64,000 bases of DNA from a virus. Of this stretch, positions 12,598 to 58,443 are shown piece by piece. The translations under genes and the position numbers were made by a program. A model generated the notes under the pieces. That model did not search any database. It saw nothing but the letters and a program-made list of their open reading frames with translations, and was not told where the DNA came from. The stretch is taken from the IMG/VR virus record IMGVR_UViG_3300029113_000198. The stretch is one strand, 5' to 3'. Each line of letters starts with the position of its first letter. The stretch's first letter is position 1.

Positions 12598-12727
12598 CGA
12601 AAACGCCCTGCGTGGGGCTGACAGCCGGGAAAGACCGGCGATATATGCCAAGGTGCTGCAAATGGGAGACAGGGCGAGCCCAAACCTCGCTGTGGAAACA
12701 CATGCGGTTTCGAATACCGTCCTTGGC
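12598..12727 (+). ncRNA. Candidate structured RNA element (GC-rich, nested and pseudoknot-like helices) upstream of the HNH gene
   Basis: ~130 nt at ~58% GC inside a 40% GC phage. Mutually complementary segments: CGAAAACGC(12598-12606)/GCGGTTTCG(12704-12712), GCCGG-gaaaga-CCGGC (12624-12639), GCCAAGG(12647-53)/CCTTGGC(12721-27), GCGAG-cccaaac-CTCGC (12674-90). No plausible ORF. Confidence 0.3.
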
Positions 12728-12759
12728 ACCAGATAATTTTATGAAGAAAGGATGATTGC

Positions 12760-13443
12760 ATGGTTAATAGGGCAGAAGATCATATTGGTGATGTCTTTGA
12801 TTTGTTTGAGGTGATTGATGTTATTCGAGATGAAAATAATATTCCATCTTACAAATGTCGATGTAAAGAATGTGGATGGACAGGGCTAAAAAATATAGCT
12901 CAGGCGAGAGCGGTTAAAGTGTGTCGGCATAAACAATCGAGTGGCGATTATAGAAATTTTTCTACACGGTGGAAAAACAAAAGAATCGGACGAATCTTTC
13001 ATGGAATGAAAGCAAGATGCTATGATGTTGATGATAAAAACTATATAACGTATGGCATGAAAGGAATTTGTGTTTATCAAGAATGGTTGGATAATCCAAA
13101 GTCATTTGAAGAGTGGTCGTTGAAAAATGGATACAAAGATAGTTTGACAATCGATAGAATTGATTCGACAAAAGATTACTGTCCTGATAATTGCAGATGG
13201 ATATCATTGGAAGATAATTCAAAATATAAATCCACAACTCGAATGTTAGAAGTAGATGGTGAAATACATACGGGACGTGATTGGGCGGCAGAATTAGGGC
13301 TTGGAACAAACACGATAAATAAATATGTAAGAAGATACGGAGAAGATAATACAAAACAATTTATAAGAAGAGTATTAAAGGACCCGGATAAAGTGAATTC
13401 TCGACAAGGGAAACAAACTATCTATAATCTTTACATGAACTAA
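12760..13443 (+). CDS. HNH homing endonuclease (free-standing, phage type)
   Basis: GMKARCYDVDDKNYITYGMKGICVYQEWLDNPKSFEEWSLKNGYKDSLTIDRIDSTKDYCPDNCRWISLEDNS is the classic HNH_3 block; Cys-rich N-terminus. Confidence 0.8.
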   Translation: MVNRAEDHIGDVFDLFEVIDVIRDENNIPSYKCRCKECGWTGLKNIAQARAVKVCRHKQSSGDYRNFSTRWKNKRIGRIFHGMKARCYDVDDKNYITYGMKGICVYQEWLDNPKSFEEWSLKNGYKDSLTIDRIDSTKDYCPDNCRWISLEDNSKYKSTTRMLEVDGEIHTGRDWAAELGLGTNTINKYVRRYGEDNTKQFIRRVLKDPDKVNSRQGKQTIYNLYMN

Positions 13444-13450
13444 ATTGAAA

Positions 13451-13490
13451 TGGCCCAGTGTAAAAACTGAGTACATTGGGCCAAATATTT
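13451..13490 (+). terminator. Rho-independent terminator after HNH gene
   Basis: TGGCCCAGTGTA-aaaactgag-TACATTGGGCCA (12-bp stem, one G-U) followed by AATATTTAT. Confidence 0.65.
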
Positions 13491-13496
13491 ATATGA

Positions 13497-13580
13497 GCAC
13501 CCGTGGTGAAATTGGCAACCACGATGGACTTAAAATCCATTCCCGGTAACGGGTTGCGAGTCCGAGTCTCGCCGGGTGCA
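13497..13580 (+). tRNA. tRNA-Leu (anticodon UAA), type II
   Basis: Manual cloverleaf: acceptor GCACCCG/CGGGTGC, anticodon arm ATGGA-CTTAAAA-TCCAT, variable arm CCCG-GTAA-CGGG, T arm GCGAG-TCCGAGT-CTCGC, discriminator A. Confidence 0.7.
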
Positions 13581-13585
13581 TATTT

Positions 13586-13661
13586 CTGGGCGTAGCGAAG
13601 TTGGCATCGCACCTGTTTTGGGAACAGGGGACCGCAAGTTCAAATCTTGTCGCTCAGACCA
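13586..13661 (+). tRNA. tRNA-Pro (anticodon UGG) with encoded CCA
   Basis: Acceptor CTGGGCG/CGCTCAG (C1:G72 as in bacterial tRNA-Pro), D arm GCGA-AGTTGGCA-TCGC, anticodon arm CCTGT-TTTGGGA-ACAGG, T loop TTCAAAT, then A-CCA. Confidence 0.7.
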
Positions 13662-13664
13662 CTA

Positions 13665-13751
13665 CGAGGATTCGCCAAGTTGGTAAGGCAGCGGAATTTG
13701 ACTCCGCCAGCGCTGAACAAGCGGTCACAGGTTCGAGTCCTGTATCCTCGG
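13665..13751 (+). tRNA. Unusual type-II tRNA: Ser-like body (long variable arm, G discriminator) with anticodon UUG
   Basis: Acceptor CGAGGAT/ATCCTCG perfect; D stem GCC/GGC (3 bp); anticodon arm GCGGA-ATTTGAC-TCCGC; 19-nt variable arm CAGCGCTGAACAAGCGGTC; T arm ACAGG-TTCGAGT-CCTGT; discriminator G. Confidence 0.5.
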
Positions 13752-13758
13752 CTTATAT

Positions 13759-13843
13759 GCGGGTATGGTGTAACTGGCAGCCACGTCAGATTTAGGATCT
13801 GATGCCGAAAGGCGTGAGGGATCGTGCCCCTCTACCCGTACCA
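13759..13843 (+). tRNA. tRNA-Leu (anticodon UAG), type II, with encoded CCA
   Basis: Acceptor GCGGGTA/TACCCGT (G1-U72), anticodon arm TCAGA-TTTAGGA-TCTGA, variable arm GCC-gaaa-GGC, T arm GAGGG-ATCGTGC-CCCTC (atypical T loop), A-CCA. Confidence 0.55.
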
Positions 13844-13942
13844 CGGTCATAGAATGGTTGCGTACCGTTTGTTGATCTCCTTTACTATTATTCCCAGCTC
13901 GCCAGTGATGGTGCAGTAGTGCTTTGTAAGCTGGGTGATTGT

Positions 13943-14018
13943 GCAGCTATGGTGTTAGTGGTTAGCACATCTGCCTTCCAAGCAGAGAGGGCGGGTTCGA
14001 GTCCCGTTGGTTGCTCCA
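13943..14018 (+). tRNA. tRNA-Gly (anticodon UCC) with encoded CCA
   Basis: Acceptor GCAGCTA/TGGTTGC (two G-U pairs), anticodon arm TCTGC-CTTCCAA-GCAGA, T arm GCGGG-TTCGAGT-CCCGT, T-CCA. Confidence 0.6.
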
Positions 14019-14207
14019 ATCTCGTATGGGTAGGATTTTTAGCGGTCAAATCCGGCTGCGCCTGTGCGAGATACCACCCCGAAAGGGGCGAGATATAGGA
14101 AATGTGCATCACTGTTATTCCTTCCTCGTCTATATGATATAGATGCAATAGTGTTTTATAAGGAAGGTGCCCAGTTGAATAGTTGCAGCTGTTTAACTGG
14201 TTTTTAT

Positions 14208-14284
14208 GGGATAGTAGCTCAGTTGGTCAGAGCTGGCGACTCATAACCGCTTGGTCGCGAGTTCAAATCTTGCCTGTCCCACCA
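14208..14284 (+). tRNA. tRNA with CAU anticodon (Met, or Ile2/lysidine type), encoded CCA
   Basis: GGGATAGTAGCTCAGTTGGTCAGAGC...GGCGACTCATAACCGCTTGGTCGCGAGTTCAAATCTTGCCTGTCCCACCA; anticodon-to-T-arm segment closely resembles E. coli ileX (GGCGACTCATAATCGCTTGGTCGC). Confidence 0.7.
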
Positions 14285-15117: not shown

Positions 15118-16573
15118 GTGAAACATTATGGAAGTATTTGCGAGATTGATGGTTCTAAGATTGAACCTGTCTCGTGTATCACTGGTGGTTCACCTTGTTA
15201 GCCAAGATCTTTCTATTGCCGGTAAGCGGGCAGGTTTGGCTGGAGAACGGTCTGGTCTATTTATGGAAATGATTCGTGTGATAAAAGAAATGAGGGATAC
15301 CACCAATGGAGAATATCCAAAATTTGCAATCTGGGAAAATGTTAGAGGAGCACTCTCCTCAAACAACGGAGAAGACTTCCGATGTGTCTTGGAAGAATTT
15401 GCACACATCGTCGAAGCAGACGCTACAATTCCTAAACCTTCGGAAAAAGGTGGAAAATGGTCTAAATCCGGCGCAATTTCCGGTAATGGATGGTCTTTGG
15501 CATGGAGACTCTTCGATGCTCAATACTGGGGAGTGCCCCAACGTCGTCAAAGAATCGCGCTTGTCATTGATTTTGGAGGACAACGTGCCGCAAAGATATT
15601 ATTTGAGCGCACGGGCGTGCCAGGGAATTCTGACGAGAGCATCCCGACGTGGCAAGGCGCTGCCAGAATTGCTGAAAAATGCATTGTTGGAAATGATCGA
15701 GTGGTGGGAGAAAAAAGCTTTTGTATCGTCGGAAACATGATTGACAGAGAAACCAACATGAATGGGACTGGTGTAAAAGAAGATACTGCTTTCACTATAA
15801 ACACTATTGACCGTAATGCTGTTGCCTACACTTTAAAGATTCGTTCGGGATGCGAAGGCTGTGGCAAAGGCGCACTGGTACAGATCGAGAAGAGCGCAAC
15901 GCTTTCTACATTGCAAGATCAAACGTTAATTTGCTTGGCAGACAACACCTCTTTACATAATTCAAAACAAAAGATTTCCCCGGTGGTGTTTGAGAGCCAT
16001 AGTCAAGATGCTCGATACACCCAGCAAGGTAATACAAGTCCGGCTTGTACGGCTCAATGGGGAACTGGTGGCAATAATATGCCGCTTGTTGCCGAAAAGA
16101 AAGCCTTTGCAATGCAACGCATTGGTGAATACAAGGAAAGTGAACAAGCTAGTACGATGAAATCTCGTGACTACAAGGATGCTACTGGCTTGATTGCAGA
16201 GAAGGAAACGAAGAATCTGCAATGGATTGTTCGTCGTCTGACCCCCGTTGAGTGTGAGCGGCTGCAGGGTTTTCCGAGCGGATGGACTGATATTGGCGAG
16301 TGGGTTGATGAGAATGGTAAAAAGCACAAACCAGCTGATTCTCCTCGTTACAAAGCACTCGGAAACTCGATTGCGTTGCCGCAGTGGCACTGGATTTTCC
16401 AGAAAATGAAGCCGTATATCGGTGAGAATCCTACGCTTGGCAGTCTTTTCGATGGAATCGGTGGCTTTCCGCTTGTCTTTGAAAGTACGTATGGTGATGG
16501 TACTGCTATCTGGGGATCTGAAATTGATAGCTTTTGCGTTGCGGTAACTAAGAAGCATTTTCCAGAAGACTAA
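15118..16573 (+). pseudogene. Cytosine-5 DNA methyltransferase, apparently circularly permuted (motifs III-X then I-II) and requiring a +1 frameshift at the PCQ motif (pseudogene or recoded)
   Basis: GTG 15118 (7 nt after AAAAGGAGG) reads VKHYGSICEIDGSKIEPVSCITGGSPC then hits TAG at 15199. The +1 frame continues QDLSIAGKRAGLAGERSGLF (IV), FAIWENVRG (VI), GVPQRRQRIALV (VIII), RRLTPVECERLQGFPSGWT / ALGNSIALP (IX-X), then MKPYIGENPTLGSLFDGIGGFPLVFE (I) and AIWGSEIDSFCVAVTKKHFPED (II) before the stop. Confidence 0.55.
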
Positions 16574-20501: not shown

Positions 20502-21717
20502 ATGGATAATACAGTTCATGACGCTCAAAGATTGAAGGAGCTTCAGGCACTCCCTCTTGAGCGAAAGATTCAAATCACTCAAAATCGCATCCAGGAATGG
20601 TATATGCACTATGATGGTGGTGTGTACGTCAGCTTCTCCGGCGGTAAGGATTCTACTGTACTTGCTCATTTGACAAAGCAGCTGTTCCCAGATGTCCCGC
20701 TTGTGTTTAGTAATACAGGCTTGGAATACTCGTCAATCCAGAAATTTGCACGAAACGCAGATGCTGTTTTTGTTTATCCCAAGATGGGATTTAGTGATGT
20801 GGTCTCTACATATGGTTATCCTCTTATCTCTAAAGAAGTGGCTGAAGCGATTTACTACGCTAGACGAATCAGAAATAGCGGCGCAGCCACCATGAGAGAG
20901 AGAGAGAGTAAGAACAACTCTCAGGAAAAGACAAGAACTTCTGGGTTTAAGGACGAACTGTCTGGGAGGTGTCTTTAGCAACCCGTGGCTTTACGATGAA
21001 ACAGGAGTTTTTCAAGGAAACAGACGGACGATTCTACTTGGTAATGAACCGGGAGCTGAAATGAAGGCCGGAACAAAATCCATGTTCAATAAGGAAAAAT
21101 GGTTGCCAGCAGCACAAGAACTTCCGTTTGCAATTTCTCATTACTGCTGTTCAGTTATGAAAAAAGGTCCGATGAAGAAATATGCAAGGGCAACCAAGCG
21201 TAAACCTATTATTGGAACGTTGACTGATGAAAGTCGTGTTCGCAAGCAAGCTTGGATTCGACATGGGTGTAATGCTTTTGATAGCAAGTCTCCAACAAGT
21301 CAGCCTATGAGTTTTTGGACTGAGCAGAACGTGCTCACTTTCATCAAACAGTCAGAAATTCAAATTGCAGATGTCTATGGCGATATTGTTCCTACGAGTG
21401 ATAAGCCGGATGCGCCATTGTGTTGTACTGGGTGTGATCGTACCGGATGCACGTTTTGTGGATTTGGAGCTCACAACAAGAACGATAATAGATTCCTGAC
21501 ACTTGCCGAACTTGACCCAAAGAAGTACGAGTATAGTATGAACGGCGGTCAATGGGTAGACAATCCAAAATATGATGCTACTGCACCTGAGTATGACGGA
21601 GTTTGGAAGAACTGGAACCCGAAGAAAATTTGGGTGCCCAGCAAAGAAGGTCTTGGACTGAGAAAAGTTTTCGATATGTTCAATGAACTGTACCCAAACA
21701 ACAAAATTCAATATTAA
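20502..21717 (+). pseudogene. PAPS-reductase-family (PP-loop, DUF3440-type) protein split by a frameshift inside a (GA)n tract
   Basis: N-part (20502-20978) has the SFSGGKDSTV PP-loop. The next frame is open from 20896 and runs into the 21061-21717 ORF, which carries a Cys cluster CCTGCDRTGCTFCG. The two frames switch at GAGAGAGAGAGAGAG (20894-20908). Confidence 0.55.
20894..20908 (+). repeat. (GA)7.5 dinucleotide microsatellite inside coding sequence
   Basis: Direct reading: catGAGAGAGAGAGAGAGta. Confidence 0.9.
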
Positions 21718-58359: not shown

Positions 58360-58443
58360 GCCGCTGTGGTGAAATTGGCAGACACGAGGGACTTAAAATC
58401 CCTTTCTGGAGACAGAGTACGGGTTCGACCCCCGTCGGCGGCA
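58360..58443 (+). tRNA. Chromosomal tRNA-Leu (anticodon UAA), type II; probable integration target of the downstream element
   Basis: Acceptor GCCGCTG/CGGCGGC, anticodon arm AGGGA-CTTAAAA-TCCCT, variable arm TCTG-gaga-CAGA, T arm ACGGG-TTCGACC-CCCGT, discriminator A. Confidence 0.7.

Follow-up and report, generated by a model that had tools for sequence, protein, structure and literature searches.

The 64,000-nucleotide (nt) stretch of viral DNA analysed here (IMG/VR record IMGVR_UViG_3300029113_000198, hereafter the window) carries a gene of the PAPS-reductase family that is divided into two reading frames by a GA dinucleotide tract. With moderate confidence, we read this tract as a slipped-strand contingency (phase-variable) locus that switches a phage PP-loop enzyme, probably an iron-sulfur (Fe-S) enzyme, ON and OFF. 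In the homologous copies of the gene, the tract is polymorphic in length, changes quickly and toggles the frame in both directions, while both halves of the gene are under long-term purifying selection. That out-of-frame alleles lose function, and that the switching is adaptive bet-hedging, we infer. The mechanism is of a known kind, and the locus is a new and unusually clear natural example of it in gut phages.

The divided gene and its GA tract

All features described here lie on the plus strand. The tract, GAGAGAGAGAGAGAG, is a (GA)7.5 microsatellite at 20894-20908 (15 nt, 7.5 units by Tandem Repeats Finder). Compared with the 11-nt tract of the commonest in-frame allele it has 4 nt more, which places the downstream part of the gene in the +1 frame. 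The tract exceeds chance expectation. It is the sole dinucleotide run of at least five units in the 64-kb window, where no homopolymer of eight or more bases occurs, and 200 first-order Markov simulations of the window sequence yielded no dinucleotide run as long as 14 nt (mean longest run 8.9, maximum 12). Codon usage does not explain the tract, as this phage uses AGA as a minor codon for Arg (16%).

Upstream of the break, ORF-A (open reading frame, 20502-20978) encodes the N-terminal half of a PAPS-reductase-family protein (phrog_424), 158 amino acids (aa) in the window allele, with the PP-loop SFSGGKDS, the ATP pyrophosphatase signature, at 20631-20654. Its conserved part comprises residues 1-130. 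An out-of-frame tail, SKNNSQEKTRTSGFKDELSGRCL, follows 3′ of the tract and ends at the TAG stop (20976-20978), 70 nt past the tract. The +1 frame is closed at TGA 20893-20895, which overlaps the ATG (Met131) at the tract start. From 20896, within the tract, it is open and free of stops to TAA 21715-21717. This TGA is the single stop of that frame between 20692 and 21717, and the frame is also open for 67 codons upstream of the tract.

Counted from its first ATG in frame, ORF-B (21061-21717) encodes the 218-aa C-terminal half. It contains the conserved KSMFNKEKW motif, a Cys pair at 21145-21150 and, at 21421-21459, the Cys cluster CCTGCDRTGCTFC; its C-terminal extension is also conserved and has no Pfam match. 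Between the tract and ORF-B lies a linker that is open in the ORF-B frame (20896-21060). It includes RKRQELLGLR (20923-20952), a family-conserved motif with the alignment consensus RKRxELxGxR, which the window allele does not read in its proper frame.

The two ORFs cover complementary parts of the PF01507 (PAPS_reduct) profile, positions 3-46 for ORF-A and 80-171 for ORF-B, and thus represent one domain cut in two. The fused protein scores 56.6 bits against this profile, ORF-A alone 32.8 and ORF-B alone 26.8 (cut-off 22.5), and a PHROG 424 search shows the same split. The original prediction, made by a model that saw only the letters of the window and its ORFs, had described a GA tract that splits a PAPS-reductase-family gene, an upstream part that stops 70 nt past the tract, and an adjacent frame that opens in the tract and runs into the ORF at 21061-21717. 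The coordinates and the Pfam halves agree with this description. It had also proposed that one extra GA unit or the loss of one base would fuse the frames. The frames are indeed fused by +2 nt or -1 nt, and three natural 17-nt alleles (L001, L089, L102) carry the exact +GA fusion and encode 405-aa proteins (P0125, P0126). The fused product has 403-405 aa, somewhat shorter than the roughly 430 aa first proposed.

One further feature of the tract is its potential for pairing. The GAGAG of the tract can pair with a conserved CTCTC 9 nt downstream (GAGAG-TAAGAACAA-CTCTC, 20898-20927), and the resulting small hairpin could stabilise slipped intermediates.

Tract variation and maintenance of the gene

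We compared the window with 59 further copies of the gene from gut viral and metagenome assemblies. These comprise 27 IMG/VR loci on gut viral contigs of 40-139 kb, 17 human-gut metagenome loci from ENA that were found with a pattern allowing any tract length, 5 loci with a second linker type (a type carried by L027 and L108-L111), and 10 loci that encode the exact ORF-B of the window (L112-L121). The last group is biased to the window allele and was excluded from frequency estimates. The unbiased set consists of the window and 44 loci (n=45), among which the IMG/VR and ENA entries may partly share assemblies. A TARA match (L106) proved to be a chance match to the pattern and was excluded.

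The tract lies at the same codon in all 59 copies and measures 9, 11, 15, 16, 17, 19, 21, 23, 25, 27, 29 or 31 nt. Two variants of the tract edge, an extra T and a T>A change, are also seen. Of the 45 copies in the unbiased set, 17 are read in frame, and the remaining 28 fall into either of the two wrong frames. Grouped as distinct alleles, the copies form 24 clusters: 14 contain out-of-frame copies only, 7 in-frame copies only, and 3 both kinds. The 11-nt tract is in frame in each of its ten alleles, and this length is unchanged across lineages up to about 4% apart. A single tract length, together with two genuinely separate genes in related phages, had been named beforehand as the outcome that would refute a genuine slippage site in one gene. 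The opposite was seen, with 12 tract lengths and, in about one third of relatives, one uninterrupted gene of 403-409 aa.

Protein collections give a similar picture. They hold uninterrupted relatives of 400-406 aa (P0001-P0004, 84-96% identity) as well as N-terminal-only and C-terminal-only fragments. The sequence ...ATMRERVRTTLRKRQELLGL... of P0001 corresponds to an 11-nt tract, so that the window has two extra GA units. The exact 158-aa product of ORF-A occurs on 33 public contigs, and the exact ORF-B product occurs in 47 blocks of the public collection. The INPHARED phage collection contains no near-identical DNA, and its protein matches (Clostridium, Ruminococcus and Vibrio phages) reach at most 40% identity. 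The tract pattern gave no match in the GTDB representative genomes. A GTDB protein search returned only relatives in metagenome-assembled genomes, at 51-55% identity, from Oscillospiraceae, Clostridiales and Selenomonadaceae. The nearest cultured relatives of the polymerase encoded near the split gene belong to Bacillota phages (about 33% identity), and the host of the phage is probably a member of the Bacillota.

The tract mutates much faster than the remaining gene. Otherwise identical genes differ in the tract by 2-8 nt. With no substitution in 1,200 nt, we found tracts of 19 nt (L018/L019), 21 nt (L092), 25 nt (L022) and 17 nt (L102) in one group of loci. The same absence of substitutions was seen between L001 (17 nt) and L014 (21 nt), between L006 (17 nt) and L020/L098 (25 nt), and between L015 (23 nt plus T) and L096 (21 nt plus T). 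The window (15 nt) and L112 (9 nt) differ by 6 nt in the tract and have no mismatches in 3,600 nt downstream, and the window equals L120 exactly across 6.6 kb; upstream flanks of the copies looked up by ORF-B were compared with MAFFT. Several pairwise alignments of 7.2 kb have no indel other than the tract. A neighbour-joining tree of 42 alleles sets minimum numbers of 23 changes in length, 15 in phase and 9 between ON and OFF. Short tracts are stable, with all 11-nt alleles unchanged, so instability depends on length, the classic behaviour of slipped-strand mispairing. We also tried to time the persistence of OFF alleles by comparing alleles of equal length. This was uninformative, as such alleles are deeply diverged (proportion of synonymous differences, pS, 0.25-0.29), which indicates that equal lengths are recurrent and not inherited.

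The gene around the tract is maintained. When the tract is reset to 11 nt, the window and every complete IMG/VR copy (30 of 30 in total) yield a clean full-length ORF. The ENA set of 17 includes three copies truncated by the limits of the stored stretch and one (L092, on a 2.1-kb contig) with a further frame problem in the N-terminal part. L092 is the only one of the 45 copies with a further stop or frameshift, the three cut copies being only partly evaluable. The ratio of nonsynonymous to synonymous substitution rates (dN/dS, Nei-Gojobori) is 0.03 for both halves and is the same for OFF-OFF pairs (pS 0.25-0.33). A value near 0.03 that includes out-of-frame alleles indicates that the gene is maintained and is not decaying. 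In the ON frame, the dN/dS of the linker is 0.15-0.17.

One lineage has repaired its frame by another route. In L107, which encodes P0004, the tract has 9 nt (-2), and the loss of one C 35 nt downstream, changing GAACTTCTGG to GAATTCTGG, restores the frame (L107:388-470). Only 11 codons of P0004 are read in the other frame, giving SKNNSQEKTRI for VRTTLRKRQEL, and the protein is otherwise intact. This compensated frameshift points to selection for a continuous chain. The closest lineages without the tract (P0005, P0006/L008/L009 and P0007) have single in-frame genes.

Synonymous diversity also varies along the gene. Third-position diversity forms a valley across codons 91-170 (window 20772-21011), centred on the tract, with values of 0.014-0.05 compared to about 0.2 elsewhere in the gene. 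The valley was measured on 20 distinct alleles and is present in every comparison class. Repeat-stimulated gene conversion, sweeps of tract alleles or nucleotide-level constraint may account for it.

The tract changes length in steps of 2 nt, which in the mechanism that we favour arise when replication slips by whole GA units, and each step moves the sequence past codon 131 among three frames. The first frame (tracts of 11, 17, 23 or 29 nt) encodes the full-length enzyme of 403-409 aa. The second (19, 25 or 31 nt) meets a TAA directly after the tract and gives a product of 137-141 aa. The third, that of the window (15, 21 or 27 nt), adds the 23-aa out-of-frame tail and gives 158-162 aa. Out-of-frame alleles are most likely OFF, because they lose the RKRxELLG helix and break the single catalytic domain, and they would return to ON by a further slip. 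The switching may be bet-hedging, for instance between hosts that restrict modified DNA and hosts that restrict unmodified DNA. The locus has the properties expected of a contingency locus: an intragenic repeat long enough to slip, repeat numbers that change the frame in both directions, and an ORF that is kept intact.

Weighing the switch against other explanations

Several observations weigh against a switch, and some of them speak for its main rival, in which the linker is frame-neutral and the enzyme is made of two chains. ORF-B would then be translated alone from ATG 21061, the two halves would assemble, and no switching would take place. We consider this unlikely, but the points behind it deserve attention. 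Out-of-frame alleles prevail in the unbiased set (28 of 45). Of its 35 tracts of at least 15 nt, 28 are out of frame and 7 in frame, an in-frame share that does not exceed the chance expectation of one third, and such a near-random distribution of frames is what a frame-neutral linker would give. Constraint is not relaxed in long-tract lineages, with a dN/dS of 0.034 for OFF-OFF pairs versus 0.040 for ON-ON pairs, and this similarity also fits a function that is independent of frame. Some OFF alleles persist, as the 21-nt tract with an extra T is common to genomes whose flanks differ by 1.6%. In addition, the 137-aa out-of-frame product of one amino-acid variant (P0123) is found on 230 contigs, and full-length members are found on 1-18 contigs each among the 15 listed of 710 cluster members.

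The protein and the start region add to the case for two chains. Each ORF retains all invariant residues of its half. A Shine-Dalgarno-like GGGAG (21051-21055) lies 5 nt before ATG 21061, and independent translation of ORF-B could start there. The linker is poorly modelled (residues 152-190) and ranges from 29 to 155 aa across the family. In one distant locus (L051:1505-3699), the N-terminal half (224 aa) and the C-terminal half (233 aa, GTG start) are separate ORFs on either side of an insert of about 0.8 kb.

Against two chains, out-of-frame alleles lose the family-conserved RKRxELLG helix, which the N-terminal chain of L051 retains. The GGGAG and the ATG occur equally in in-frame alleles, where GGGAG codes for Pro-Gly-Ala and the whole is explained as coding sequence for Pro-Gly-Ala-Glu-Met. 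The second linker type has no comparable ATG and Shine-Dalgarno sequence, yet it too has out-of-frame alleles, and no promoter-like site was recognised in the linker. The compensating 1-nt deletion of L107 restored the frame, and the linker dN/dS in the ON frame indicates that this frame has been translated over evolutionary time. Finally, the predicted fold is a single domain made of both halves. The phase-variable locus remains the reading that we prefer.

Recoding during expression is a further alternative, and one that we think improbable. RNA polymerase slippage that yields mixed mRNAs, or a -2/+2 ribosome shift on AGA/GAG, would produce the full-length enzyme from out-of-frame alleles, and the phase of the DNA would set its amount. 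This would explain strong purifying selection alongside a near-random DNA phase. A 2-nt shift anywhere in the tract restores identical codons, and perfect codon-anticodon re-pairing is possible. Programmed frameshifting and slippage are known from dnaX, insertion sequence (IS) elements and potyvirus P3N-PIPO, and the split gene shares with them two overlapping frames joined at a slippery repetitive sequence. Unlike in those cases, the relation between the frames is not conserved and the length of the DNA itself varies. A programmed site would keep one frame arrangement, but all three occur among near-identical genes, and the shift that is needed varies by allele class (+1/-2 versus -1/+2). No stimulatory RNA structure was found 3′ of the tract (z = -0.11) and no Rfam family matched. 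The known transcriptional slippage sites are homopolymeric, and to our knowledge there is no example of transcriptional slippage on a dinucleotide repeat. The locus was for these reasons (varied frames, z = -0.11, no Rfam family) not assigned to programmed frameshift or transcriptional slippage sites, and the transcriptional slippage that had been raised as an option for this tract was not supported.

A decaying pseudogene, in which a dispensable gene carries the frameshift as one of many lesions, is very improbable. The gene is out of frame in most sampled copies, as decay would predict, but every lesion sits at the tract or at its 3′ edge, apart from the one in L092 (with three of the 45 copies only partly evaluable), and dN/dS is 0.03 in both halves at a pS of up to 0.33 among out-of-frame alleles.

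Least probable of all is a sequencing or assembly artefact, with a true tract in frame and a 15-nt consensus error: dinucleotides stutter in library PCR, and coverage is low (1.9-12x) for several ENA contigs, but at least nine other assemblies, made from different runs with different pipelines and having flanks diverged by 0-4%, carry the 15-nt allele, its 158-aa product is on those 33 contigs, tracts of up to 31 nt are below read and k-mer lengths, and identical alleles show identical lengths in different datasets. The original prediction had suggested that the tract may be an ON/OFF switch or a transcriptional slippage site rather than an assembly error. The slipped-strand site and the reality of the allele, seen in nine assemblies, bear this out, while the ON/OFF phenotype is something that we infer.

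The enzyme, its family and related systems

The protein belongs to the PF01507 / PP-loop ATP pyrophosphatase fold, as judged from its profile score, its SGGxDS PP-loop and the likeness of its fold. An AlphaFold2 model of P0001, built with a 44-sequence alignment, has a mean predicted local distance difference test (pLDDT) score of 83 and is confident for either half. A helix is predicted for the (RE)n and RKRQELLG segment (residues 131-145, pLDDT 61-77). About 40 residues after the helix, 152-190, have a pLDDT below 50. In the same alignment, PP-loop residues S46, G47, G48, K49, D50 and S51 are invariant, as are C214, C215, C255, C307, C315 and C318 (P0001 numbering). The invariant cysteines suggest that the enzyme carries an Fe-S cluster. 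Foldseek aligns about 300 columns of the model, spanning both halves, with CysH, APS (adenosine 5′-phosphosulfate) reductase, CysD and TtuA, so the model describes a single-domain fold built from both halves. A DUF3440 architecture had been proposed for the fused protein. No DUF3440 match was found in Pfam at E <= 0.01, where PF01507 alone exceeded its cut-off and DUF7411 was sub-threshold. A PDB sequence search gave only marginal matches (E >= 0.05).

The best structural matches are CysH proteins (PDB 6vpu, 1sur, 2goy and 7lhs; Foldseek probability 1.00, TM-score about 0.55-0.62 on target length). APS reductases have a CC...CxxC cysteine pattern, as does the phage protein. Unlike CysH, the phage protein is about 180 aa longer, shares 12-16% identity with it, and is encoded between recombination and replication genes, not among sulfur-assimilation genes. 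It was rejected as an assimilatory PAPS/APS reductase, since it scores 17, 26.3 and 18.7 bits with TIGR00434, NF002537 and TIGR02055 against cut-offs of 165, 154 and 235; for NCBIfam cysH and PRK02090 this amounts to 17-26 bits versus 154-165. In the phage PAPS reductase literature, there is no mention of a repeat or frameshift in the gene.

DndC, SspD and BrxP are PAPS-reductase-domain proteins that make DNA phosphorothioate (PMC12914056). The phage protein resembles them in its PP-loop PAPS-reductase domain and its conserved cysteines. The match covers about 40-60 residues around the PP-loop, and the conserved C-terminal extension and variable linker are features of the phage family alone. 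Membership in these families was rejected because PADLOC profiles match only about residues 20-87 (BrxP 43, SspD 25.8 and DndC 14.6 bits). The proposed link to DNA modification is drawn from this weak similarity and from the position of the gene in a replication module. A role of the enzyme in nucleic-acid modification is plausible.

The gene is flanked on one side by a Sak4-like ATPase and a zinc-finger protein, and on the other by DnaB, primase, a RecJ-like exonuclease and a PolIII-alpha-like polymerase. Ten ORFs were scanned in the region from 10 to 33 kb, and these also include a methyltransferase, an exonuclease V/Dda-like helicase and several without recognised function. No DndD/SspC/BrxC-type partner or cysteine desulfurase was recognised among these ten. 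A 481-aa DNA methyltransferase-like ORF lies at 15128-16573, 4 kb upstream of the split gene. The window also has a seven-gene tRNA cluster at 12647-14284 (three for Leu and one each for Pro, Gln, Gly and Met) and another tRNA-Leu at 58360-58443; none of them reads AGA. In L112 (GCA_041328415.1, JBGKQK010000005.1), the element lies at about 1.89 Mb on a chromosome-sized bacterial contig of 2.76 Mb, and a second carrier contig has 3.06 Mb. An element inside chromosome-sized contigs suggests that this phage of about 135 kb probably also exists as a prophage.

Repeats at this site extend well beyond the close relatives of the window. Across the family, the linker between AIYYARRIR and KSxFNKEKW is hypervariable. 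In a protein set that includes P0011-P0120, 36 of 85 full-length in-frame proteins have (ER)n of at least two units at the tract position, and others have GGG(G). GA or polyG repeats occupy this linker site in relatives at 50-60% identity. Distant loci L029, L031, L039, L047, L050 and L051 have pure GA tracts of 12-23 nt, runs of G8-G10 and C11 occur in L040, L044, L046, L047, L052 and L055, and L040 has three GGGGGGGGTACA units. The N- and C-terminal halves are in different frames in L044, L047, L049, L050, L052 and L055, and at least in L044 and L047 the shifted stretch contains simple sequence repeats. Repeats at the same site in diverged relatives indicate that the repeat site is old or recurrent in the family.

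Some of these linkers have features of their own. Diverged loci on contigs of about 140 kb (L052:3363-3665 and L055:3366-3677) have copies of an RxxELLG-like motif in different linker frames, with G8 and C11 runs and, in L052, also a short CA repeat. The insert of L051 resembles, by eye, a C5-cytosine methyltransferase (ILDLCGGSGSW, PPCTEFS) that is broken into two frames at a C9 run. We propose only tentatively, and with some doubt, that the family shares a conserved mutable module: a T-poor, poorly ordered and frameshift-tolerant linker with simple repeats (GA, polyG or polyC) at one site. This module might act as a long-lived contingency switch for a nucleic-acid-modifying enzyme, with selection on tract state leaving the valley in synonymous diversity.

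If the locus is a switch, its closest analogue would be the A9 tract of T2 agt, a contingency locus in a DNA-modification gene (Gomez, Barrick & Waters, bioRxiv 10.1101/2025.10.21.683753). Turning agt ON or OFF toggles DNA glucosylation, with a trade-off between two type IV restriction systems (bioRxiv 10.1101/2025.10.21.683753). The polyG tracts of Campylobacter phages are likewise phage contingency loci, as that preprint summarises the work (Sorensen et al., cited in bioRxiv 10.1101/2025.10.21.683753). As in the gene studied here, a simple repeat in a phage ORF gives reversible slippage frameshifts, which in those phages yield mixed progeny. Their tracts are homopolymers characterised by experiment in cultured phages, whereas ours is a dinucleotide repeat of up to 31 nt in a different enzyme family, and the evidence for it is natural polymorphism in gut metagenomes, read from sequence alone.

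Dinucleotide phase variation is also known in bacteria, from the CT repeats of H. pylori sabA (PMC2715451), and simple repeats drive phase-variable DNA methyltransferases (PMC11475388). The GA tract shares with these systems an intragenic repeat, three-phase switching, length-dependent instability, ORFs that stay intact despite many OFF alleles, and a repeat that is conserved while its length varies. It differs in its carrier, a virus or prophage of gut Bacillota and not a pathogen with a small genome. It also differs in its target, a PAPS-reductase-family enzyme in a replication module and not a surface protein or methyltransferase.

Descriptions of phage contingency loci are recent and have been limited to homopolymer tracts of cultured phages. 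The GA tract adds a population-scale natural case, in an abundant uncultured human-gut phage/prophage lineage of about 135 kb, and a dinucleotide repeat that spans 9-31 nt. The target family is usually filed by viromics as a sulfur "auxiliary metabolic gene" (AMG; phrog_424, "host metabolism"). Annotation pipelines will call two fragments in most genomes, with the 137-aa and 158-aa fragments on hundreds of contigs, and this affects how many "cysH-like AMGs" and pseudogenes are counted. The locus is also a simple PCR-sized marker for phage subpopulations. Should ON and OFF be balanced against host defences in the way known from T2 agt, this would make the function of a widespread phage enzyme testable.

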